Notes under the pieces: model-generated
Seen by the model: only the letters and a program-made list of their open reading frames with translations
What the model was told of the DNA's origin: nothing
Database searches by the model: none
Position numbers and translations under genes: made by a program
In this document: one piece after another, positions 14,016 through 62,900 of the stretch
Layout of the letters: each line of letters opens with the position of its first letter
Position numbering within the stretch: position 1 is the first letter of the stretch
From: Octopus vulgaris
Lineage: Eukaryota
DNA length: 64,000 nt
Assembly: GCA_951406725.2 (NCBI GenBank)
Contig: OX597817.1
Location: 67,456,001-67,520,000, forward strand
Reading direction: 5' to 3'

Positions 14016-14082
<67 letters not shown>

Positions 14083-14084
14083 CT

Positions 14085-14253
14085 ACACACGTTTTTTCGT
14101 TCCTTGTTTCTCTCCTTGTTTTTTCTGTGTCCTTTTCTGTAGAAGAGCGTAGGCTCGAAACGTAAAATAGTTTTTCTTTTCCTGAGCGTTATACTAATAC
14201 ATCTGTTTGTTTTGTACACCACCTGTCTTCGTCTTTTTTTTTTCGTAAACTCT

Positions 14254-14257
<4 letters not shown>
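14085..14257 (+). mobile_element. (TA)n-anchored pLTR-like stub, family H1, with hammerhead-like motif at 14133-14167
   Basis: Same family as 25540-25780 (+) and 29358-29545 (-). Motif TTT CTGTAGA A GAGC-GTAG-GCTC GAAA CG TA AAA. Confidence 0.6.
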
Positions 14258-14296
<39 letters not shown>

Positions 14297-14302
<6 letters not shown>

Positions 14303-14416
14303 AAGGAGCTTCTACAGGACTAGAACTGTTTCATTCAAAAGAAATCATCAGGAAGAGCTTCCTGATGATTTCTTTTGAATGAAACAGTTCTAGTCCTGTA
14401 GAAGCTCCTTCTATAA
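14297..14416. repeat. Perfect 59-bp-arm fold-back between two (TA)n tracts, with a 3' tail to 14491
   Basis: Arms 14297-14355 and 14358-14416. The tail GGTTAACCCCGACTCAACCCGG.ACCTAC is shared with 29278-29306. Confidence 0.92.
14356..14406 (+). ncRNA. Type I hammerhead ribozyme (mirror copy on the minus strand at 14307-14355)
   Basis: Stem I AGCUUC/GAAGCU, canonical CUGAUGA, stem II UUC-UUUU-GAA, GAAA, stem III CAG-UUCUAGUC-CUG, predicted cleavage after GUA. Confidence 0.8.
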
Positions 14417-14488
14417 AATAAATTAATTTACTCTGCTATGTATTGAGTACCTTATTTACTGTGGTTAACCCCGACTCAACCCGGGACC

Positions 14489-14540
<52 letters not shown>

Positions 14541-17589: not shown

Positions 17590-20500
17590 TATTGAAAGGG
17601 CAGCTGCTGAACAAGAATCTTTTTTGTGCATGGCACAAACGATTGTACAGCAGCTAACCTGGCTCCATCAAACTCCAACTCGCAGATGGGACTATCCACA
17701 ATACACAAGACCGCCACAGCAAATAGACCCAAGGTGGACACCGCCGGCAACAGCATACACCTCACCTCGATGCTCCTGCTGAACATCAGAGGACTGCTAA
17801 CACTCAGTAACAGGACAAAAATCCCGTTCTTGAGACACTTTGTTGCATGCAATCAAGCCTTATGCATAGCACTTACGGAAACACACCTGAAGCCGGACAT
17901 AGCAGATGCGGAAATACACATACCACAGTATGTTGTACTACGGACCGACAGAAAAGAAAGGAGTCATGGAGGAGTTGCTATATACATCCGTGAGGACCTC
18001 ACACCCCAGGTCCTTTTGTCATACTCAAATTCGGTGTGTGACACACTAATTGTACATATAAGGCAACTTGGTGTAGTTATATGTGCTACATATCACCCTC
18101 CAGATGCCCCAAGCCATGTAGGCAAGTTTGAAGACTGCCTTATAAAAATAGAAGTTCTAGTCACATTAGAATAACACATAAGTGTACTTCTTATGGGAGA
18201 CTTCAATCTACCCAATGTCAGATGGCCCGAGGGCCTTTCTCTCCCAGGAATGACACGATGTGAACGAGCACAGGCGAGGTCCCTCCTGAACCTCATCAAC
18301 ACTCTGTACATGGAGCAAGTAATACTCCAACCAACCAGGGCAGGTAACATACTGGATCTCTGCTTCATAAATAATATGGATCTTATCCATAATGTGAAAG
18401 TGACACTGACACTACTCTCGGATCACAACATGGTAGAGCTGACCATGTAGGGCCAAAGGAAAGCATGGACATGCAGCCTACAAGAAACTCTCGGAATCTT
18501 TCCAGCTTGAACTTCCATAAGGCAAACTGGAAACAAATTGAGAAAGAGATCCTCAAACAAAACCGGCCTGAATGTCTATCCTCACCAGACATCGACATGA
18601 AACTTCAACAATTCATGTCTGTAATGCAAGCCATATGCTACAAATGTGTCCCAGCGAGAAAGGCCACTGTACACAAGAACAAAATCCCCAGAGAGAGGAA
18701 AATTCTAATGAGACGGCGTACAAAAGTTTCAAATCGCCTAAACAAACAAATTGAAAGCAGTGAAAAGTCCCGCCTGAAAATAAAACTGTTGGAAATTGAA
18801 AAATGTCTGCAACTCTCCCTTGAAAAAGAAAGAGCAGACAAAGAAGCCTGGGCTATAGACAACATAAAATCTAACCCCAGAGCTTTCTACAGGTATGCCA
18901 AAGAAACGGCTACGGTGCACTGTAGGATAGGGCCACTCCTTGAAAATGATGGCACACTCACAGGAAATCCATTGAGGATAAGTGAAATACTAAATGAGCA
19001 ATTCAAGAGTATTTTCACTCCACCCCTAGGGCATTTTCAAGTCAGCAATCCAACTGACTTCTTTACCACTGCAGATATAAAATCGGAGGCGTCAATGATT
19101 GATTACATCAATATAAAGGAAGACGATGTAATAAAGGCTATTGATGAAATGAAAACAAACTCAGCTACTGGCCCAGATGGATTCCCAGCAATCCTTCTAA
19201 AAGTATGTAAGAGAGTCCTAGCAAGACCACTGCAGTTCCTCTTTCAGAGCTTCCTTGCAACTGGCAAACTTCCAAGAAAATTGAAGGAAGGTAAAATATG
19301 CCCTATTCATAAAGGAGGTAGCAGAGCGGAGGCCAAGAACTACAGACCTATCTCTCTGACCTCACACATCAGCAAGGTCATGGAACGAATAGTCAGAAGG
19401 AAACTAATCACCTTCCTTGAAGAAAATGACTTGCTGCCTGACACCCAACATGGTTTCCGACCAGGAAGAAGCTGCTTAACTCAGCTCCTACAACACTATG
19501 ATTGGGTGCTGAAACGACTGCTCAACCACTCAAATGTGGAAGTCATATATCTCGACTTTGCAAAGGCCTTTGATAAAGTCGATCATGGAATGCTATGTCA
19601 CAAACTGCGTGATCTTGGCATAGTTGGAAAATTGGGAGAGTGGCTTCATGACTTTCTGAAGGATAGAAGTCAGGTGGTAGTTGCCAATTGGGCCACTTCC
19701 ACTAACACGCAAATAGTGAGCGGTGTTCCGCAGGGCACTGTTTTGGTACCACTACTGTTCATAATGGCCCTCTCAGACATGCCCTCAGCCACGCAGAGAG
19801 CCACGATCACAAGTTATGCAGATCATACAAAAGTTTCACAGGCAATACAGAACCCCGAAGACACTAATCACCTGCAATATGAGCTGGACAAAATATATAA
19901 GTGGGCTGAAAAGAATAGCATGTAGTTCAATGCTGAAAAGTTTCAAGCTCTATGCTATCAGCACGCAAAACTAAATGCAATACCCAATAAATACACTGGA
20001 CCTGGAGGGACTGAAATCCCAGAGGCACAATCAGTGTGAGACCTGGGTATTTACATGAGTGATGATGCAACCTTTCATGTGCATGTGTCTAAATTGGCAA
20101 TGAAATGTAGGCAGCTGACCGGATGGATTCTTAGAACCTTCAGAACAAGAGACCAGGAAACCATGATGGTCCTCTGGAGGACACTTGTCCTAAGCCACTT
20201 TGACTATTGCTCTCAGCTATGGTCACCATCCAGTGTCAAGTTAATCACAGAACTTGAGGCGATCCATCGAAGCTACACGAAGAAGATAGCCTCTGTGTAG
20301 CATATAAGCTATTGGGAAAGACTCAGGAGATTGAGACTCTATTCCTTAGAGCGTAGGCGAGAAAGATATGCCATAATATACATCTGGAAGATCCTAGAAG
20401 GACTTGTCCCAAACTTTGGCATCGAGAGTTACACAAATGCCAGAACTGGGCGCCACTGCATAGTGCCAAGGACTCCAAATTTGGAGATACTGTGATAGCC

Positions 20501-22851: not shown

Positions 22852-22963
22852 AATTTCAACAATTGAGGGTAAAATTAATTAATTATTAATTAATTTCACC
22901 AAGTGTTCAGTATGCAAAGGGACCATTTAAGGCGAATTCAAATTATTACAATATATAAAAGGG

Positions 22964-23256
22964 CTTAGTAAAATAAATTACTTTGCCGCATACTGAACTC
23001 ATTAGAAATAGCAGCTAAAAAACTTTTTTAAAAACCATTTCTAATACTTAAAGAAAATCTCTCTCGTATAGTGTTTGGTCAACTCAACTCACGAAAGTTT
23101 GGGGGTAAAGTTTACCCCCAAACTTTCGTGAGTTGAGTTGACCAAACACTATACGAGAGAGATTTTCTTTAAGTATTAGAAATGGTTTTTAAAAAAGTTT
23201 TTTAGCTGCTATTTCTAATGAGTTCAGTATGCGGCAAAGTAATTTATTTTACTAAG
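22964..23256. repeat. Perfect 146-bp-arm palindrome (1-nt centre at 23110) between (TA)n tracts, with an extra tail at 22852-22950
   Basis: ..TTTGGGGGTAAA G TTTACCCCCAAA..; pairing continues about 11 bp further past a 3-nt indel. Confidence 0.92.
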
Positions 23257-25539: not shown

Positions 25540-25877
<338 letters not shown>

Positions 25878-26424: not shown

Positions 26425-27205
26425 CAGTCAATGACACCTGTCTGTAGGTGTTATTATTAAAATTCAAAAAGTTGTTTTGGAGGATAAACTTAAGGCCCTC
26501 GATGATGAATTCTTTTTTTATTCTTTCCGGGACCTCATTGGGTCCCGGAATTTAATTCCTCAGAATTTAATGGCTTCCAGTCCATATTTATGTGGGATCG
26601 TAAGGTAAAGGTTTATTACATCAATGAAAATGTCTTTATTGGTATGTTTGTAGAGATAATTTAGTAGGTCCAGGTAATCTCTTACAATACTTGGTATGTG
26701 TTTAAGTATTGGTTTTAAGAGGATATCAATAAAGTTGCTTAATATGTGTGTTTCAAAGTTTGGGCCTGTCACAATTGGTCTCAGTTTGAGATCAGTGGGA
26801 TTAGGTACAGTGATGCAGGTTGAAGTGGACCTTTTGCAAGCTTCGGTAATAATTTTGCTCTTGTGGATTTTTGGAAGCCCATAGAGGATGCTGGTTTTGC
26901 AATTAACGTTTGTTATGTAGTCGCATTCCTTTGCTGTTAAGTCATTTCGATATTGGCAAATGAGTGCGTTTAATTTGGTCATTGTTTTTGATTGTTGGTA
27001 GTTGACTACTCTTTCATAGTAGGTAGTATCTTGTAAGAGGTGAGATACAGAGTTTTGTATTGTTCAGTATCCATAATGACGACAGTACTACCCTTACCTG
27101 CTTCCTTGATTGTGACGTCATGATTGTTTCGTAACTTATAGATGATTTCCCATTCCCTTTTACTGGTGTTGGGTTTGGGTTTAGGTTGTAGAAGTTCACT
27201 ATAAG
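26425..27205 (-). mobile_element. PLE reverse transcriptase N-terminal half, inverted relative to the downstream half
   Basis: ILYGLPKIHK, LKLRPIVTGP, FIDVINLYLTIP, EFIIEGLKFIL; homologous to 60100-60780. Confidence 0.85.
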
Positions 27206-27229
27206 GAAAGTTTGAAATGTAGTCACAAA

Positions 27230-28030
27230 ATTTTCCAAAGTTTTGTTTATTTTAATAATAACACCTACAGACAGGTATCAGGGACTGCAATGGGAACTAA
27301 AACTGCCCTTACTTATCCAAACCTGGTGATAGCCTACCTAGAATTACAAATTTATGAAGAATCCAAATACGGCCTGTCTTTCCACATATACCTGTTGGAG
27401 AATTGGAAACGCTACATCCTATGGTCCCACATACTCGACCAACTCATTGATTTCAAAAACTTAACAGTGTCAACAACCATATCCAATTTACAATGAAATA
27501 TAATCAAGACCAACTTCCTTTTCTTGACATTCTTATTATAAAAAAAAGGCTTCAACATTGAAACTGATATCCACTACAAGCCAACTGATTCCAAACAAAG
27601 CTCCTGTTCACCTCCAATCACCCAAAGCACACGAAGACATACATCCCCTTCAACCTAGCGAGAAGAATCTGTACAACTGTCCCAATTTATAGAACACTAA
27701 ATAAAAGACTCCAAGAACTAAAGGCGATTCTTCTCGAAAGACATCATTAGTTGACAATGGAATAGAACGGGCCAAGATAATTGCTACCCAAGACTTACGA
27801 AAACCGAAACACACTCCCGGTACATCAAATAGTCTACCATATCCCTCAACACACAATCCAAGAAATGCAGACGCTTACACAATTATATACAAGAACATCC
27901 CACAGCTGAGTCAAGACCCACATCTAAAAAAAGTACTCGCAACCCACAAAATAAAAAAAACAAAAGACAACCCAAATCCCTAAAAAACCTACTCCCCAAT
28001 GCAAAATTACCTAACACAAGCACACCGATA
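27230..28030 (+). mobile_element. PLE reverse transcriptase C-terminal half, degenerate
   Basis: YRQVSGTAMGT, QFTMKY..LPFLDILI, IHYKPTDS, IPFNLARRICT. Confidence 0.85.
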
Positions 28031-28645: not shown

Positions 28646-28746
28646 TCATTATTGGGTTCAACGCCCAATGAAGAGCCCTTCACAGGAGCTCGCTGAAAAG
28701 CCGCCCGATAGAGCAGCTTTTAAGCTAGTATGTATGTATATGTGTG

Positions 28747-28783
<37 letters not shown>

Positions 28784-29127
28784 TTTATAGAAGGAGCTTC
28801 TACAGGACTAGAACTGTTTCATTCAGATGAAATCTTCAGGAAGCTGGCTGTCAAAATAAGGTCTGGTATTTATACATTTAGGCAGATTTAATGGGGTGAG
28901 GTGGGGGACGTTTTTGGGTAAGCAGGGCACAAACTATTGTTCTTAGGGGAGTGGTCAAAAGGCCAGAGAGTTTATTGAAATGAGAAGAATCACTGATTCT
29001 TCTCATTTCAATAAACCCATTAAATCTGCCTAAATGTATAAATACCAGACCTTATTATGACAGCCAGCTTCCTGAAGATTTCATCTGAATGAAACAGTTC
29101 TAGTCCTGTAGAAGCTCCTTCTATAAA

Positions 29128-29176
<49 letters not shown>

Positions 29177-29306
29177 CACACGTATACATACATACTAGCT
29201 TAAAAGCTGCTCTATCGTGCGGCTTTTCAGCGAGCTCCTGTGAAGGGCTCTTCATTGGGCGTTGAACCCAATAATGAGGTTAACCCCGACTCAACCCGGC
29301 ACCTAC
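28646..29306. repeat. Nested fold-back unit containing (TA)n and two mirror hammerheads
   Basis: Outer arms 28646-28895 and 29016-29277; inner 23-bp-arm hairpin 28970-29016; tail 29278-29306 shared with the 14.3-kb unit. Confidence 0.9.
29066..29116 (+). ncRNA. Type I hammerhead ribozyme (mirror copy on the minus strand at 28795-28845)
   Basis: AGCUUC CUGAAGA U UUC-AUCU-GAA U GAAA CAG-UUCUAGUC-CUG UA GAAGCU. It differs from the 14356 copy only at N7 and in loop II. Confidence 0.8.
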
Positions 29307-29345
<39 letters not shown>

Positions 29346-29357
29346 CGTGTGCGTGTA

Positions 29358-29545
29358 TAGTGAGAATTTATAAAAAAAAGCAAATAAAAAAAAGACGAAG
29401 ACGGATGTGTAAACAACAAAGAGATGTATTAGTTTAACGCTCGGGAAGTGAGAAAGTCTTTTACGTTTCGAGCCTACGATCTTCGACAGAAAGGAACACC
29501 GGAATAAACAGGGAGAGAAAATAGAAAAAGTTTTAGTGGCTAGTG
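29358..29545 (-). mobile_element. Stub family H1 with hammerhead-like motif at 29458-29493
   Basis: Reverse complement CTTT CTGTCGA A GATC-GTAG-GCTC GAAA CG TA AAAG. Confidence 0.6.
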
Positions 29546-29726: not shown

Positions 29727-29873
29727 CATCTCTGTCTCTGTCTCTTTCTCTGTCTCTCTTTCACTCTCTAAACAGCTGTTGTAATGGCGGTGTGGGTTTC
29801 CACCCCAACATTCGAAACTCGGAGTTTTATCATGGCAACCGAATAATTGTCACATTATATTTACAGATAAATT

Positions 29874-29914
<41 letters not shown>

Positions 29915-30267
29915 ATAAAACGGTAAGATAACAAAAGAAAGAAAGAGACCTCAATATTATGTAAATAGAGGAAATTTATCTATACAATATGTTACATTAC
30001 TCGGTAGTCAAGATATAACTCTGAGTTTCAGATGCCGAAGTGGAAATCCACAACACCATCTCTTCGGTTATCTGGCTATTTGAAAACGTTATGAAAAAAT
30101 ACCGTTAAAAATGAAGGGAAATTACTCTGTTATAACTCTGCTTTGCCTGCGTACTTATACATCGCTCGCATTTTTCGTCATAAAAATTATATAAAAATAC
30201 ATAAAAATATATAAAAATATATAAAAATATATAAAATCTTCTTGGGACATAACACAGAAAGCATGTT

Positions 30268-30994
30268 CTATCCGTTTTCTTTAGGGGACCAAAAACGTAA
30301 CAGAAATTTAGTCACATGTGGGCATGATCCGAAAAGCTCTGTCCTTGTATTTAGACATGTGGTAGGGTCTAAGCTGCTTTTCCAGATAAGCCATCTCTCC
30401 ATGTCGCATAAACCGCACCTTCCGCTGCCGTTAGTATAGGGCTTACATCTGGCCAAAATCTTCCATTGTATGTTATAATCGACACCTTTATCTCTTAAAG
30501 ACCAAATATGATTGGATAATTGTGTCGCTTTTCTTTTGTTCCAGTGCCTAAAGCTCAAAGTGTGGTTATTGAACCTGGCCTTGAAATTACCCTCTGTCAG
30601 GCCCACGTATTTCTTCGTCGAAACGGTGTCTTTAGTGGTTATAGAGTTTACGGTAGCTTCATATATGATGGTCTTGGACATGCAAGCTCCATTTAGCGGG
30701 CACAATTCTTTATTCCTGCATGAACAGCTGTTTTCTTCTTGTGTTTTTTGTATGTTATGATTGATTATGTTTTTAAAATTGGTAGTTGAACTAAAACTAA
30801 TTTTTAAATTGTGTCTATTGAAGAGTTTCCTATAAGCATGGTTAACTGGAAAATGTCTATCTATCAGTGCTAGGAAATATTTACCTATATTGAAGGCCAC
30901 CTCGGGTGAGTAAGGGGGCGTAAACCAGATGACCTTCCTATTTCTATTATTCCTTTTCCTTATTGTTGGGCTGGTGATAGGTGTATATTTTATT
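30268..30994 (-). CDS. PLE C-terminal linker plus GIY-YIG endonuclease, 5'-truncated, uninterrupted (left arm)
   Basis: The frame runs through the spacer as IKYTPITSPTIRKRNNRNRKVIWFTPPYS. Motifs CSCR..CPLNGAC, IIY..YVG, FKARFNNH, CGLCDME, LNTRTEL..CPH. Confidence 0.8.
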
Positions 30995-31700
30995 CAGCCC
31001 AACAATAAGGAAAAGGAATAATAGAAATAGGAAGGTCATCTGGTTTACGCCCCCTTACTCACCCGAGGTGGCCTTCAATATAGGTAAATATTTCCTAGCA
31101 CTGATAGATAGACATTTTCCAGTTAACCATGCTTATAGGAAACTCTTCAATAGACACAATTTAAAAATTAGTTTTAGTTCAACTACCAATTTTAAAAACA
31201 TAATCAATCATAACATACAAAAAACACAAGAAGAAAACAGCTGTTCATGCAGGAATAAAGAATTGTGCCCGCTAAATGGAGCTTGCATGTCCAAGACCAT
31301 CATATATGAAGCTACCGTAAACTCTATAACCACTAAAGACACCGTTTCGACGAAGAAATACGTGGGCCTGACAGAGGGTAATTTCAAGGCCAGGTTCAAT
31401 AACCACACTTTGAGCTTTAGGCACTGGAACAAAAGAAAAGCGACACAATTATCCAATCATATTTGGTCTTTAAGAGATAAAGGTGTCGATTATAACATAC
31501 AATGGAAGATTTTGGCCAGATGTAAGCCCTATACTAACGGCAGCGGAAGGTGCGGTTTATGCGACATGGAGAGATGGCTTATCTGGAAAAGCAGCTTAGA
31601 CCCTACCACATGTCTAAATACAAGGACAGAGCTTTTCGGATCATGCCCACATGTGACTAAATTTCTGTTACGTTTTTGGTCCCCTAAAGAAAACGGATAG
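30981..31700 (+). CDS. PLE C-terminal linker plus GIY-YIG endonuclease, 5'-truncated (right arm, identical peptide)
   Basis: 239-aa ORF in the track. The GTG start lies in the spacer and is probably fortuitous. Confidence 0.75.
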   Translation: MYILFSPTIRKRNNRNRKVIWFTPPYSPEVAFNIGKYFLALIDRHFPVNHAYRKLFNRHNLKISFSSTTNFKNIINHNIQKTQEENSCSCRNKELCPLNGACMSKTIIYEATVNSITTKDTVSTKKYVGLTEGNFKARFNNHTLSFRHWNKRKATQLSNHIWSLRDKGVDYNIQWKILARCKPYTNGSGRCGLCDMERWLIWKSSLDPTTCLNTRTELFGSCPHVTKFLLRFWSPKENG

Positions 31701-31894
31701 AACATGCTTTCTGTGTTATGTCCCAAGAAGATTTTATATATTTTTATATATTTTTATATATTTTTATGTATTTTTATATAATTTTTATGACGAAAAATGC
31801 GAGCGATGTATAAGTACGCAGGCAAAGCAGAGTTATAACAGAGTAATTTCCCTTCATTTTTAACGGTATTTTTTCATAACGTTTTCAAATAGCC

Positions 31895-31957
31895 AGATAA
31901 CCGAAGAGATGGTGTTGTGGATTTCCACTTCGGCATCTGAAACTCAGAGTTTTATCT
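31895..31957 (+). ncRNA. Type I hammerhead-like motif with CCGAAGA core (mirror copy on the minus strand at 30011-30073)
   Basis: Stem I AGAUAA/UUAUCU, CCGAAGA, extended stem II GAUG..GUGGA-UU-UCCAC..CAUC, U GAAA, near-palindromic ACUC-A-GAGU, then U. Confidence 0.65.
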
Positions 31958-31979
31958 TGACTACCGAGTAATGTAACAT

Positions 31980-32032
<53 letters not shown>

Positions 32033-43680: not shown

Positions 43681-44884
43681 CTGTGTAAATGATTGACTCT
43701 CTTGGCCAATGAGCCATTTTGTAACACCTGCTTATCAAATATATATATTAAAAAAAAACATATTTACTCATGTTTTGAGTTATATTTTTCTGTCAATCTG
43801 TACAACCAGATAGTTATTACTAGTCTTCGTTTTTAATATTTTCATATATCAAATAAAATAACAAGAATGTAACGCTTCTTTGACTTCGTAGATATAGGAA
43901 GGTTATAACTCGTTTACCCTTTTAATGGCTTCATGCATCAAAAGCTGAACCTCCGCCTCATTAAGTATGTTGACACTAACTTGACAACTATGATATAGTC
44001 ACGATGACTTGCATGTTTTGCCGATTGAACGCAAATATGCTAACCACTATTGTATTCATCACAAAATACCAAGTTCTCTATCTGCTGAAATGCATTAAAA
44101 TTGAATATGCAAGTCATCATTTTGAATCTTACTGTCCACCTTGTATATGATTAGTTTTTTCGGGTATTGACATGTATCCATCTAGTTCTGCCAATTCCCT
44201 AGTCTATGTTCTTTCTTGTCCATTTTTTTTTTGGCCCTGATTGTATATTCGGTCACTCTCTATGAGTCAATCTTGACATCGTTTTAGACATAGTGTATCT
44301 AGGATGATTTGTCCTAGATACTGTATGTCTGAAAAATAATATATTGCCCAATAAAAGATGTAGCTAGATAAAAAGTTGGTTGTTATTTCTTAGAAACCAG
44401 GAGTCAATGTATTTATTTTCGTTGTGAACACCGTGATAATTATTTCACAAAATATTTTCGCCTTAAACATTTATACTGTCAAGTATATTTGCCTTAATAT
44501 TTATAAAAAGGAAAACAAAACTCACAAGTTGTATTTTGTTTGAACTTACAGTTTAGTTTTTTGTCTGCCTGTTTGAAACAAAGTACCTTGTTTGTCAAAT
44601 TAGAAGAAAAAGAAGGATTAGCTAATAAATTATTTTAAAATGCTAGCTAGTTAACAGTTTATTTTTTTACGGTATGATTTTTTTTTTGTCTAAATTGAGA
44701 AACAACCGACTTGGTTTCTAATAAGAAGACTACGAACCAAACTGTAAATAAAGCAAAGCAATACTTTAGACACTGCTTAATGCGGTTCCGCTAACCCACA
44801 CAGACAATTTAATTGATTCTCTAATGTTTTGAAGTGTAAATGTACATGAATGCTTATATGTAACTATGTATATACGAATGTGAA

Positions 44885-50469: not shown

Positions 50470-50988
50470 CATAGTTACCACTTACGTAATATATATGTAA
50501 ATGTCCGCAATTCATCAGTGTGACCATCAAAGCAAAATATAATTTGCAGAACTATACACGGGACGTCCACATGAGATTGAACATGCATATAGTTCTACCA
50601 ATTACATTTGGGGTTATATTTCAAGTCTTCGTTTTGGCGCGCCAAAATATGGGAAATAATTCTGCAGAAAATAATTCTCTGCAGTGACTTTTGCCGGTTA
50701 GAGGACATGGTTATTTAAATTTTACCTGCAAAATTCATTGCAGAGAATTATTTTCTGCAGAATTATTTCCCATATTTTGGCGCGCCAAAATGAAGACTTT
50801 TGAAATATAACCCCAAAAGTAATTGGTAGAAATATAAGCATGTTCAATCTCATGCGGACGTCCCGTGTATAGTTCTGCAAATTATATTTTGCTATGACGG
50901 TCACACTGACGAATTGCGGACATTAACATAGAAAACTTGGCACACGCATAGCGCTGCGTATATGTGCATTACGTAAGCGGTAACTATG
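50470..50988. mobile_element. Palindromic MITE-like (fold-back) element with long diverged arms
   Basis: Termini CATAGTTACC..GGTAACTATG; arms about 50470-50698 and 50723-50988 with substitutions and indels; non-coding. Confidence 0.7.
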
Positions 50989-51402: not shown

Positions 51403-51813
51403 TTGGTAGAACCTATCCTTTTAGTAGAACCCCATGTACGGATAAGTACTGTATGTAGATTTAGCCCACAAACAAACTGTAAAGCCAGAAATGTAGTCTA
51501 TAGTATAAGATGTATAGAGGGACGATGCAGTAACAAGACAATGACATACGTAGGGGAAACAGCAAGAAGCATAGGAGAGCGGGTAAATGAGCATTGGAGA
51601 CAACCCAAGGAAGGTAAAATCTCATCGATTCTGTACCAACACGCCGAACAGGAACACGAGGGATCAATCAATAACATAGAAATTAAAATATTATCCACAC
51701 AGAGATCAGATGCAACAATTAGACAAATTACAGAAGCTACACACATAATAGAAAATAAACCTAGCCTGAACAGAAAACTAGAATGGAGCACTAACACACA
51801 CCACAACATATGA
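51403..51813 (+). pseudogene. GIY-YIG endonuclease domain of the PLE
   Basis: VVY..YVG motif with conserved R, H, E and N. The upstream frame is broken. Confidence 0.8.
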
Positions 51814-52543: not shown

Positions 52544-52591
<48 letters not shown>

Positions 52592-52684
52592 GTAGAAAGA
52601 GAGATAGATAGATACCCGGGTGAGCACAAAATGTGAAACAAGGTGGAAAAAAGAGTACTCAAATACCAGAGGTAGGGTAATATG

Positions 52685-52804
52685 CTTTATTTAAAAGCAG
52701 CAGAAATATAACAAAAGCTGTTACTCAGAGTTTCACGGTCCCGTTCGTCGGACAGTGAAACTCTGAGTAACAGCTTGTGTTATATTTCTGCTGCTTTAAA
52801 TAAA

Positions 52805-52805
<1 letters not shown>
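52685..52805. repeat. Fold-back (~51-bp arms) between (TA)n tracts, with a tail at 52590-52684
   Basis: Arms 52685-52736 and 52755-52805, with two small differences. Confidence 0.9.
52718..52755 (-). ncRNA. Minimal type I hammerhead with CCGACGA core
   Basis: CUGU CCGACGA ACG-GGAC-CGU GAAA CUC-U-GAG UA ACAG; all three stems close and the predicted cleavage triplet is GUA. Confidence 0.72.
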
Positions 52806-52951: not shown

Positions 52952-53133
52952 AATTAAATTAGAGATAAAACCACTATTAAACAACTCAAACAGTGATAGA
53001 TATAAACCAACACAATTTAAAATTTTATAATGTATATATATATATTGTATATTATATTAATTCTTTTTTTTTTGTTTTGGTTTACGTCTATCACTGTTTC
53101 AGTTGCCTAATAGTGGTTTTATCTCTAATTTAA

Positions 53134-53135
<2 letters not shown>
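52952..53135. repeat. Diverged fold-back (~59-bp arms) between (TA)n tracts
   Basis: AATTAAATTAGAGATAAAACCACTATTA..CAGTGATAGA..AAACCAA pairs with its inverted copy at 53077-53135; tail at 52865-52951. Confidence 0.85.
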
Positions 53136-58243: not shown

Positions 58244-61200
58244 GGAAAATAAGACAAGGTAGAAAATATTAAAATAATATCATGAAGAACATTTTAGTAC
58301 CGGTTCCAGCCTTTGCGACTTTCTCAACTTGGATTAAAGCATGAAAAACAATTAAATTGTTGAAAAATTAAATGAAATGTTTTTTAAAAATATTTCCATA
58401 GTTTTCAAATGTAAGGAATATTTTCTTTTTTTCTGTCTGTCTCTGCCTCTCTTTTTTACTCTTGTGAGGGCTTGGTAACAGGTACATATTTTATATATCA
58501 TATCCCACACGAGATACAGAAAATGCCGACAAAAACAGACACAGTCACTACTTATAAATGAAGAAATACTGAAAGAACTCAAGATAATCAACACAAATCT
58601 GTCAGCGTGTTTTAACAAATTCGACTCGACACATGGACCGAATCGAGAGAACATTGAGGAAATCGATACGAAAAATACAACCTCCGAAATTGTCGAAAAC
58701 CTTGGAAACTTATGCGAAACAGAACATTTTTCTCAAACAACGCCAACCAAGGACCACCGAACGAGGCAGCATATGCGATCAATACACTAACAACATACCA
58801 AATGAAACAATACACAGTACAACAATGAAATCACTCAGAGATAGAAAGTTCGCCTTTTGGAAGATGATCCAAAACAACAACAAAGCGAATGTATACGGCA
58901 AATGGCTCAATCTGACACCGTTAATTCCCCCGTACAAACTCCAGATCAAAGCCATTATAGATGAACCTGAGGCGCAAATACGCCTCAGGGAAAGAATACC
59001 ATTGGAAAAATGAAGATGGAAATAGAACTTCTAAAACTGAGGGCTCAGACGAATGAAGATAGAGCAAAATCCACCGATGAAGAGATCAACCAAGAAATTA
59101 AACAAAATGACTCAAGGCCCCGACCTAGAGAAGATATCCAAACTAGGGAAAGAGGATTGTGATAAAGACGAACTGAGATCCCTCCAACGCTGAGGAAAAA
59201 AGTGCCACTTGGTTCTCAAACTATGAAACTGTCTTTCAAACAGAATACACTTCCAAAAACCCTTTCCTAAGACTAGAAAATCGAAGCAACACTCAAGCAC
59301 AGATTCACACCTGTCTAAAAAACCGGAACCATCACCCCCTACCGAAAAAGAATAGAAGACCTAATCCTAAGTTTGTAACCCACCATCATCGGGAGTACCT
59401 CAACATGAAACAGAGAAATGAAAATCATTACCCGCAGGATAGATATTGCAACCTTCTCTCCAATGAAATTTTCGTTCCAACAATCTACTAAACAACCACG
59501 CACAACAAACCCGTACCACACGTAATAATTACCAACGACAGCCCCCTAAAACACCACATCCGAACATGAAATATAGAGACACACCTTTCAATACCTTCCC
59601 AAGAACCCGCACCAGAAATCACATCAGGGCACTCCACAACAAGGAACAACTACATAACAGCAACCGACCCGATCTCAATCATTTTTGAGACCCAATACGC
59701 AAACACAGAGATACGAGATAGCACCAGACAGACAGGAAGAACCAAAAATGATAAACCAAATAAACAGCAAATCAAATCAACATAATCTCCAAAGGGCTCA
59801 ATTTTACACCCCCACCAACGCCCAAACTACAACGAAATGAATGAAGCCGTCTCGGAATTCTGTAGAAAATTACGACTCACTGAGGAACTATACGACAAAT
59901 ACAAAGAGGACGAATCGTTAGTCCAAAATAGAAGTAACAACACCCCTTCAAAAAGTAAGAGCAAAATTCTTGACCATTTCTATGAATACATCTCGAATTA
60001 CCCACATCAAGATATACACAAACAAAAACACAAGCCAAACTTCAGCAAAAAAAAAAGAATGGGTTGAGCTGAACAAATTAAAAGCTGGTAAAGATAACAA
60101 TCAAAGAGGCCGATAAATGGAGTGCAGTTGTCTTAATTGACACGTTATACAATACAACTCTAGCACTAACCATATGAAAAGATCCAACACTATAGTCAGC
60201 AGAAAATAATGAGAAACCTAAAATCTATGTTAAACCTATACAGAGAAGGGCTCACCGACAAGGAATATGATTATATGACCAACTTCAAAAGTAAAACCAG
60301 CCAATTCTACAGTATTCCCAAGATACACAAAAGTGAGAAAATAAGTAACGCATGCAGGATAGCCACATACATAATAATCAAGTTCCCTACTCTTAATGAT
60401 CTCAAATTAAGACTTATAATAGCAGGTCCCGCATGCGAAAACACCACCTCATTAACTTTTTAGACACCCTCTTAAAACCATTCCTTAAGTATATCAAAAG
60501 CTACATAAGGGACGTCCTAGATATGCTCAATCACCTCCCTAAAATAATAAACAAAAACACCCTACTAGTATCCACCGATGTAGTCAGCTTCTATTCTAAT
60601 ATCCCCCGCAGCCTAGGAACAGCGGCAATTCAATTCTGGCTAGAGAATTAATCCAATGAACTCCCACATCACATCAAAAAAGAATTCATAATAGAAGGGC
60701 TAAAATTCATCTTGGAGAATAACTACTTTGTCTTCAACGACAACTTCTATCGACAAAAATCGGGGACTGCAATGGGTACGAGAATGACCCTACCTCCTTT
60801 GCTAACCTAGTCATGGGATACCTTGAAATCTTTATCGTAAGGTACTAGAAAATACGGCAACCCATTCTCCCTCTACATAGAAAATAACTGGAAGAGCTAT
60901 CTGGATGACTGTTTTGTTCTTTGGCATGAAAGTACAGAGAGATTTAAAGAATTTCAAACACTAATAAATGGACTTGACGTAAACATTCAATTTACAATGG
61001 AATATAGCCATCAATAACTTCCATTCTTCGACATCCTCATTAAGAAATCTAACAACGAAATAGAAATAGATATATATACTATAAGCCCACGGACTTCAAG
61101 CAATATCTACCGTTCAACTCAGGCCACCCCAGATACTAGAATGAATATCCCTTTCAACTTAGCAAAAAGGATTTGTACTATAGTTTCTAATACAAGCACC

Positions 61201-62442
61201 AAGGAAACACGACAACATGAACTAAAGGATATTCTCGTTACCAGGAACTACCCACCATCATTAATTGATATAGGCTTTCAACGTGCCCTACAACTCGACA
61301 TCCACGAACTCAGACATCCTAAATCAAAGAAAGATTTACAACCTTACCATACATCTCCACACACAACCCTCTTAAGAATAAAACCTTCGACACCATCCTC
61401 CAAACATACCCCTACTAAAAAGGGACCACAGAATGAATTTAATCCTCCAAACCTCACCGTCATAAAAAGCAAAAGACAACCCAAATCTATGAAATGTCTC
61501 CTAACACAAGCCCAAGTACGCTCGACAACACTGAAACCGTCAGTAAAATAAATGCAGAAGACCTAACTGTGGTATATGTGTCAACCTATTTGAGGGATCG
61601 GAGTTCTTTTTCAAACAGTGTCAATATATGTATTCACTTGCTCTGGGTGTCGGGAGCAATACATAGGCCAAACCAAAAACAGTCTACGTCAAAGGATGGC
61701 TGTACATAGATCCCAGATCAAAATTCGGGAATACAAAAGAATAGCATTCAGCGAATACATCGACATTTGCGCCACTAACAAACAACCCAGCTTCAGAATT
61801 TTTCTCCTCTATAAAACTCAGGGACGATGCAACTTGTAGTCAGCGCATTGGTAAAAAGTAATATTTTACCACAAAATATAAACCCTTTTTGAATGCATAC
61901 ACCATAAATGACACTATTAGAAGGGCCTCAGAATAATACCCAAGCACATTGTTGAAAACGATATATTCAGAACAATCACTACCCATGAATCTATTAAGAA
62001 CAGTTCCAATCACTACTATTACAGCCACAACAGGTCACTTTTAGGTTAAGTCACTTGACCATTTAAGAGGATTCCACCAACAACCTTCAACTGTCATACC
62101 ACTTCCACATTCTTCTTCTTCTTCTTCGCCGCCTCCTTTCTCAGCTGCTACTACTGCTTAAACAATCAAAACCAAGAACTCATATCAAATGTTAGGACTA
62201 CTACTACCTGCTACTTGCTACCAAGCCCTCACAACGGTAAAAAAAGAGAGACAGACAGAAAAAAAGGAAAATGTCCCTTGCATTTGAAAACTATGGAAAT
62301 ATTTTTTAAAAACATTTCATTTAATTTTTCCACAATTCAATTGTTTTTCTTTAAGTTGAAAAAGTTGCAAAGTCTGAAACCGGTACTAAAATGTTCTTCA
62401 TGATAAAATTATTTTAGCATTTTCTACCTTGTCTTATTTTCC
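58244..62442 (+). mobile_element. Near full-length degenerate Penelope-like element (Neptune-like) bounded by inverted pLTR copies
   Basis: SKGLNFTP, FCRKLRL, TIKEADK, FYSIPKIHK, DVVSFYSNIP, QKSGTAMGT, YLDD, NIPFNLAKRIC, CRRPNCGIC linker, IYVFTCSGCREQYIGQT..RQRMAVH. Inverted repeats 58244-58483 and 62212-62442. Confidence 0.9.
62351..62390 (+). ncRNA. Degenerate pLTR hammerhead (mirror copy on the minus strand at about 58293-58332)
   Basis: UUGAAAA AGU-UGCAAAG-UCU GAAA CCGG UA CUAAA, with palindromic ACCGGU. The other copy has stem II AGUC-GCAAA-GGCU. Confidence 0.45.
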
Positions 62443-62553: not shown

Positions 62554-62900
62554 ATAGAAGAATGTTTATAATTAGGAACAAGTCACAATTATAACTAAGA
62601 GGGTTTCAAAACCCTTACATGTTTAAAAATAACAGCCAAAACCGCTATAAAGCCATTTTTATCATTCATATTATTTCTCTTCACAATTGAAACTGTTTGC
62701 AGGCGATAAGACAAATAGAATCTACAAATTAAAAATAACTGGTTAATTCCCTATTGCAATTTCGACGTGAAGAGAAATAATATGAGCGATAAGAATGGTT
62801 TTATAGCGGTTTTGCCTGCTATTTCTAAACATGTAAGGGTTTTTTTAAACCTTCTTAATTATAACTGTGACTTGTTTATAATTATAAATATTTTTCTATA
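62554..62900. repeat. Diverged fold-back (~130-bp arms) near short (TA)n
   Basis: Arms 62554-62683 and 62767-62900, e.g. ACCCTTACATGTTTA/TAAACATGTAAGGGT and TATTATTTCTCTTCAC/GTGAAGAGAAATAATA. Confidence 0.85.

Follow-up and report, generated by a model that had tools for sequence, protein, structure and literature searches.

A probable fold-back insertion of a Hydra-type Penelope-like element accounts for a hammerhead motif in octopus DNA

The segment at 14297-14491 of the octopus DNA analyzed here (the window, 64 kb in total) is likely to be a dead, 5'-truncated insertion in a (TA)n tract, folded back on itself and derived from the 3' end of a Hydra-type Penelope-like element (PLE). Its source is likely to be a high-copy Hydra-type family, and the inserted part would correspond to the pseudo-LTR (pLTR) with its hammerhead ribozyme, followed by a tail. 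The segment, hereafter copy 1, adds one more family to the known PLE fold-back pattern and is not a new type of element. The PLE origin offered in the original prediction is supported by the shared layout and by the published pattern of PLE insertions.

Copy 1 is composed of (i) an inverted arm (14297-14355, minus strand) that forms 59 perfect pairs with 14358-14416 and carries a minus-strand ribozyme core with C3 at 14351, (ii) a 2-nt apex (14356-14357, plus strand) that also provides the first two bases of native stem I, (iii) a direct arm that ends with a 3' flank (14407-14416) common to both arms, and (iv) a one-sided plus-strand tail of 75 nt (14417-14491). The two arms are 100% identical. 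The tail contains the motif TTGAGTAC at 14443-14450 and a stem-loop with an AC-rich loop at 14470-14485, a candidate start of reverse transcription by its likeness to the stem-loop described in PMC11167929. A (TA)n tract adjoins the element on either side, the left one at 14257-14296, as read from the sequence, and the right one, written as (AT)n, at 14492-14537. The hairpin therefore measures 120 bp (14297-14416) and not the 195 bp proposed earlier, the rest being tail, whereas its centre had been placed correctly at the 5' edge of the ribozyme, since the apex coincides with the start of stem I. Since stem I is without its first two bases in the inverted arm, it measures only 4 bp in the minus-strand ribozyme; a complete motif, claimed for both strands, is found on the plus strand. 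The exact 195-bp form occurs once in the window, and public contigs do not resolve hairpin apices.

These features agree with those of EN+ PLE insertion units: an inverted 5'-truncated copy adjoins the direct copy head to head, the tail is one-sided (75 nt in copy 1 and 30 nt in a second copy, copy 2), and a hammerhead lies in the pLTR. In the available text of PMC8557442 and PMC3846280, PLE insertions are described as having an adjacent inverted 5'-truncated copy and a one-sided tail of 30-40 bp, and Hydra elements as inserting in (TA)n (PMC8557442). The (TA)n target of copy 1 matches this Hydra-clade trait but is unspecific, as Naiad and other elements share it.

The perfect identity of the copy 1 arms might also be produced by assembly or amplification, the fold-back being an artefact on an ordinary 3' fragment. 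We regard this as highly improbable: the arms of copy 2 differ from one another by substitutions, by (AT)n length and by a deletion, older fold-backs with diverged arms (69-90% identity) occur in the same window, and the tails are one-sided. Hardly credible, too, is a MITE or a small-RNA hairpin gene with an incidental likeness to a ribozyme. The inverted repeat is perfect, lies in a TA context and gives a weak match to MIR319 (29 bits vs 54), but it is central and not terminal, its tail is asymmetric, and a complete ribozyme is far beyond chance.

The hammerhead motif in copy 1 is real and more than a chance occurrence: a strict descriptor, applied to both strands, found three hammerhead motifs in the window and none in 300 shuffled sequences of the same 64-kb length (order-1 Markov). 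The type I hammerhead occupies 14356-14406 of the plus strand, with stem I formed by 14356-14361 and 14401-14406. The core elements CUGAUGA (14362-14368), GAAA (14381-14384) and GUA (14398-14400) are present, as had been reported, and the predicted cut follows 14400. Stem II (14369-14380) includes a U·U pair and 3 bp, with the loop at 14373-14376, and stem III consists of 4 bp (ACAG/CUGU) and an 8-nt loop (14388-14395). The palindrome CUAG is indeed contained in this loop, and the pair that closes stem II, 10.1-11.1, is U·U (14369/14380) and not the usual G-C, both as noted before. On the plus strand, stems I, II and III can form with 6-7, 3 plus U·U, and 4 bp, respectively; the 6 bp given for stem I are the native ones, and a junction G pair brings the plus-strand stem to 7 bp. 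The core positions C3-A9, G12-A14, A15.1-U16.1 and H17 are present in all three to four ribozyme copies. According to folding predictions, the hammerhead-constrained fold of the isolated motif lies within 1.8 kcal/mol of the ensemble. The description of this hammerhead as canonical was nevertheless overstated, as Rfam yielded no hammerhead match at the gathering level, the best being Hammerhead_3 (12 bits vs 48.5, E 3.9). A window-wide Rfam scan gave no hammerhead among the matches listed (150 of 197).

By analogy with described ribozymes, the U·U pair is a known, tolerated variant and no defect. U10.1-U11.1 was described as a natural variant by Perreault et al. (PMC3088659), and the axolotl HHR_Amex2, with U·U at the base of helix II, shows 22% cleavage as a monomer (PMC7229834). 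Among the 25 Hydra-clade families of File S2 in PMC8557442 (26 rows, with one family appearing twice and two families sharing one motif), a count by eye shows a stem II that begins with U·U to be the commonest form, with 14 families, and the stem III sequence ACAG/CTGT to be present in 4. A pattern built from the octopus element, with the same stem II, matched 13 viral and metagenome loci, none of them from this octopus family. Eleven of these loci (5 of the 7 unique ones) are complete phage- or bacterial-looking hammerheads of type III or I, with a chance of 0.9% each; having been found by this very pattern, they do not bear on convergence. Type III and I hammerheads sharing the letters of the U·U-closed stem II were observed in L001 (2001-2024), L002, L004, L008 and L009, whereas L011 and L012 from the same scan are not complete hammerheads.

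Among known systems, the Hydra-clade EN+ PLEs (Craig et al. 2021, PMC8557442), which include Hydra-1_Obim, resemble the octopus element in the type I hammerhead near the 3' end, the (TA)n target, the inverted 5'-truncated copy and the one-sided tail. By eye, Hydra-1_Amil and Hydra-2_Amil also have, as does copy 1, a TWGAG(Y)A motif past the ribozyme (PMC8557442). The differences are loop III, with 8 nt in the octopus element vs 1-3 nt in the 25 Hydra rows, and the tail, with 75 nt in copy 1 vs the published 30-40 nt (PMC8557442). A motif search of the available PMC8557442 supplement, in which line breaks might mask a match, gave no match to the octopus ribozyme sequence. The minimal hammerheads that occur alone in truncated PLEs of metazoans (Cervera and De la Pena 2014, PMC4209133) are likewise dispersed single motifs, with opposite-strand pairs 100-700 bp apart and a palindromic loop III suiting dimers; unlike them, the octopus motif has a full 4-bp helix III and a short helix II, and lacks both a G10.1-C11.1 pair and an extra base after A9. 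In Anolis, the Poseidon element PAc (Frangieh et al. 2024, PMC11167929) is similar in its AT-rich target, its tail, an AC-rich stem-loop near the element end and, as proposed for copy 1, copying from RNA uncut at the ribozyme, whereas its ribozyme overlaps the start codon and no ORF starts after the ribozyme in the octopus element. A recent octopus repeat annotation (PMC13282606) gives 31 Penelope-like families as recently active, and its available text contains no mention of ribozymes.

Copy 1 does not represent the full length of the family, since at least 148 nt of additional upstream sequence are present in copy 2 and in public contigs. Copy 2 is a larger fold-back (28646-29277) centred at 28993 and reaching 148 nt upstream of the ribozyme; its position 28845 maps to 14356. 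The left arm (28646-28992, minus strand) contains 147 nt of native upstream sequence, an internal (AT)n and an unrelated-looking segment of 108 nt, with a TATA box at 28874-28867 and a third ribozyme copy at 28845-28795. The right arm (28994-29277, plus strand), which is ~73-75 nt shorter through an internal deletion, has a TATA box from 29037 and a hammerhead at 29066-29116. It is followed by a one-sided plus-strand tail of 30 nt (29278-29307), 92% identical to 14457-14495, and then by (AT)n. The inverted repeat of copy 2 passes through the (AT)n into this 108-nt segment (28646-28753 and 29170-29277) before the 30-nt tail; the segment may be flanking host DNA that was copied during fold-back synthesis, or it may have been captured in the template. 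As a degenerate ribozyme it was rejected, because its core fails. The left flank of copy 2 compared with the tail gave p = 0.012, which is not significant over 15 pairs.

As stated in the original prediction, copies 1 and 2 differ only at N7 and in loop II: 3 of 68 positions differ over 29066-29133, namely 14366 (N7), 14373 and 14375 (loop II). The confinement of all three to N7 and loop II has p = 2e-4 if only those five positions are counted as free and p = 0.08 if all loops and the 3' flank are. Parts of the stretch are contained in 20 of 24 listed public runs (11 studies, 5 coded organisms), four of which were compared by their contig records (973, 508, 90 and 133). Among the matches listed, loose ends run past 28992 in three of the four and diverge at 28845 in three of the four, which shows several subfamilies with a common ribozyme and different sequences immediately before it. 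In the two arms of copy 2 alike, letters in the minority in the runs are present at 28861 (~98% other letter in run X1) and 28826 (~90%), and the arms were therefore copied from one template. Variant places in the four runs number two in the 51-nt ribozyme, both in loops, eight in 28846-28861 and one in 28862-28898; biased by a 3% cut over very different depths, and with copy 1's own N7 variant unlisted, these counts are only consistent with constraint on the ribozyme. The constraint proposed for the ribozyme is supported for the source family and not for copy 1 itself. Contig depth is far greater over the ribozyme than just upstream in all four runs, more so in X4 (RNA only by guess), but such depth cannot rank parts, its dips track private variants of copy 2, and it was used neither for copy number nor for the start site. 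The contig records list neither joints nor molecule ends.

No ORF is joined to the ribozyme family, the longest contig records reaching only a pyrimidine-rich upstream region; consequently, the Hydra assignment rests on the form of the ribozyme, the target and the tail.

The 195-bp unit had been interpreted as a minimal non-autonomous element with a working ribozyme. The ribozyme core is indeed intact, and the direct arm begins exactly at stem I and finishes at the end of the tail. In addition, the consensus of X1 loose ends resembles a second fold-back centred within ~7 nt of that start (18 of 20 letters by eye), this consensus being mixed, with 11 contigs and an agreement of 0.81. We nonetheless find this interpretation very unlikely, as the ribozyme fold is predicted to be excluded on both strands, the upstream TATA region has been lost from copy 1, and the sister copy 2, with a different centre, runs together with the contigs at least 148 nt further upstream. 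Moreover, the fold-back, the one-sided tail and (TA)n are also found on a neighbouring element with a Hydra-type ORF, and they are the published PLE pattern (PMC8557442, PMC3846280).

In a different, retrozyme-like scenario, the family would be a tandem repeat devoid of ORFs (non-LTR retrozyme) and a source of circular RNAs, with copy 1 as a solo inverted offspring mobilised by a PLE. We consider such an origin unlikely. The same 30-nt tail terminates copy 1 and copy 2 ahead of (AT)n, no head-to-tail copy exists within the 64 kb, and no joints are listed in the four runs, the last point being a weak one drawn from contigs only. The canonical contact between loop 1 and loop 2 involves the terminal A of loop II, and the loops II of the two copies (UUUU and AUCU) are without it. 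As defined in the available text of a preprint, a retrozyme requires at least two ribozyme-bearing units in tandem (bioRxiv 10.64898/2026.07.22.740005), an arrangement absent from the 64-kb window. On the other side, the helix sizes (6 bp in I, 4 positions in II and 4 bp in III) are near those of canonical type I, no ORF is joined to the family in the sequence examined, and the same preprint argues that retrozymes derive from pLTRs. The axolotl HHR_Amex2 (PMC7229834) is likewise a type I hammerhead with a U·U-closed helix II on a short non-coding repeat; in contrast to such retrozymes, the octopus copies are head to head, and neither a monomer nor a circle can be released by two ribozymes that lie on opposite strands.

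For a PLE insertion, a series of steps can be proposed. As shown in vitro, AT-rich DNA is nicked by a PLE protein, which then uses an AC-rich stem-loop as the internal starting point for reverse transcription of an uncut RNA (available text of PMC11167929). The anatomy of copy 1, the longer sister copy and the arm identity are observed in the sequence, and we infer the following steps: the PLE reverse transcriptase-endonuclease would nick the (TA)n target, and reverse transcription would start inside the tail of an uncleaved RNA, at the tail end, copy 136 nt through the uncut ribozyme and stop at the 5' edge of stem I. The cDNA would then fold back and copy itself for 59 nt, and the product would join the other target end at an AT-rich site, which would leave the tail one-sided.

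The hammerhead in copy 1 is predicted to be dead in a read-through transcript. Folding predictions for the whole element give a hairpin of -112 kcal/mol and a ribozyme probability of ~5e-54, compared with 0.05 for the isolated motif and 0.006 for an arm with the tail. Owing to the head-to-head arrangement, transcription of either strand would reach the antisense arm first, and the read-through RNA is therefore predicted to form a 59-bp duplex with no ribozyme. The ribozyme would likely act only in source copies, weakly or as a loop-III dimer; two ribozymes are predicted to pair via stem and loop III (-14.8 vs -2.4 kcal/mol), and dimer-acting hammerheads have precedent (PMC4209133). If ribozyme motifs in PLE fold-backs are self-silenced as predicted, assays must use one arm only.

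A possible but doubtful explanation for the centre of copy 1 is that PLE transcription starts at the first base of the hammerhead, copy 1 being a complete strong-stop cDNA that folded back and did not jump. Tentatively, synthesis would then have started internally in the tail and run off at the 5' end of the RNA. Otherwise, and with the greater probability, a stall at an RNA structure or chance truncation would explain this centre. In copy 2, 29 nt separate the start of the TATA box TATAAATA from the first base of stem I, which has the context CC/AG, and the direct arm of copy 1 starts exactly at that base; the octamer occurs 22 times on the two strands of the window. The 18-nt spacer between the TATA box and stem I varies strongly in sequence with its length kept, as seen in ungapped records with 10-15 differences and in a compensating +1/-1 in X7, and the single variant place listed in 28862-28898 is a count biased by depth. 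By eye, in the available new Hydra consensus sequences, a TATA tract is found 28-38 nt before stem I in two of six, and a YCAGT word at the start of stem I in two of six.

Several observations count against a start site at the ribozyme. Four of the six consensus sequences have no clear TATA there, and the Hydra-ORF element of the window has CC/AG but no TATA. Just one of four fold-backs is centred at this position, and another is cut inside the ribozyme. Penelope of D. virilis has a TATA-less internal promoter (PMC2377424). A TATA box with an initiator in a pLTR has already been noted for Adineta (PMC3846280). In the openly accessible literature searched, we found neither a Penelope start site at the ribozyme nor a strong-stop product. 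If the start-site reading is true, the ribozyme defines an LTR-like R region, and solo ribozyme stubs are failed strand transfers that map PLE start sites. Two questions would become testable, the role of PLE hammerheads and the origin of tandem and inverted pseudo-LTRs with tails, both stated as open in PMC8557442.

Self-comparison of the window revealed 19 inverted matches within 3 kb after masking, several of them fold-backs. Of the four hammerhead-bearing ones, three have their centres 0, 148 and ~910 nt upstream of stem I and the fourth has its centre within the ribozyme, as truncation would predict. The largest is the 3' end of a Hydra-clade PLE of another family (29913-31994), a 1000-bp fold-back (arms 29974-30973 and 30995-31994) with an ORF at 30981-31700, its own hammerhead variant from 31895, a 61-nt one-sided tail and (TA)n on both sides. 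The ORF product shares 45% identity with an RT-EN protein of 702 aa in a 223-residue alignment and is a GIY-YIG C-terminus with the CxCX5C linker, CxxC and CxH, the motifs that define the Hydra clade. RT-EN ORFs of this clade are expected to have RWK, DKT and CxCX5C and to lack CCHH; DKT is present in two of its three homologues, and the third starts later. Pfam gave only sub-threshold GIY-YIG matches for the window ORFs and nothing for P0001-P0003, and a search of genome and viral contigs found no loci for the Hydra-like protein P0001. In the ribozyme of this element (31895-31960), position 4 is C, stem II is long and the site reads GUU; a related fragment lies at 29784-29855. Another fold-back of a different family (52578-52805, with the inverted match at 52685-52805) is cut inside its hammerhead and has a one-sided tail similar to 14417-14491. 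The alignment of this tail with that of copy 1 has p = 0.002, the floor of 500 shuffles, and a score of 41, barely above the 40 of the best of 1704 unrelated windows; for the tail of the ORF-bearing neighbour, p = 0.06, which is not significant. The tails of copies 1 and 2 both end in a stem-loop with an AC-rich loop.

The motif TTGAGTAC is a candidate recognition motif on sequence grounds. A relaxed form has 11 matches in the window, and the only two exact ones (14443-14450 and 52662, the latter on the minus strand) both lie in one-sided tails, 43-57 nt past a hammerhead cut site; words resembling it occur in published Hydra 3' ends.

Other repeats were observed in the window. A third repeat family (14080-14256, 25590-25769 and, on the minus strand, 29386-29520) has a hammerhead-like end with CUGUNGA, an extra A and a GAGC/GCUC stem, ending at (TA)n, and copies 1 and 2 each adjoin a copy of this family across (TA)n, a nested landing pattern. 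Fold-backs with no detectable hammerhead, with arm identities of 69-99% and several of them beside (TA)n, lie at 22957-23256, 44546-44747, 50494-50930, 52952-53135 and 62554-62899. Further probable PLE families are represented by broken fragments with RT and GIY-YIG sequences at 26560-28030, 51403-51813, 58588-59013 and 61018-61900, and a broken LINE with endonuclease-like and RT frames (RVT_1, E 3e-25) at 17611-19925.
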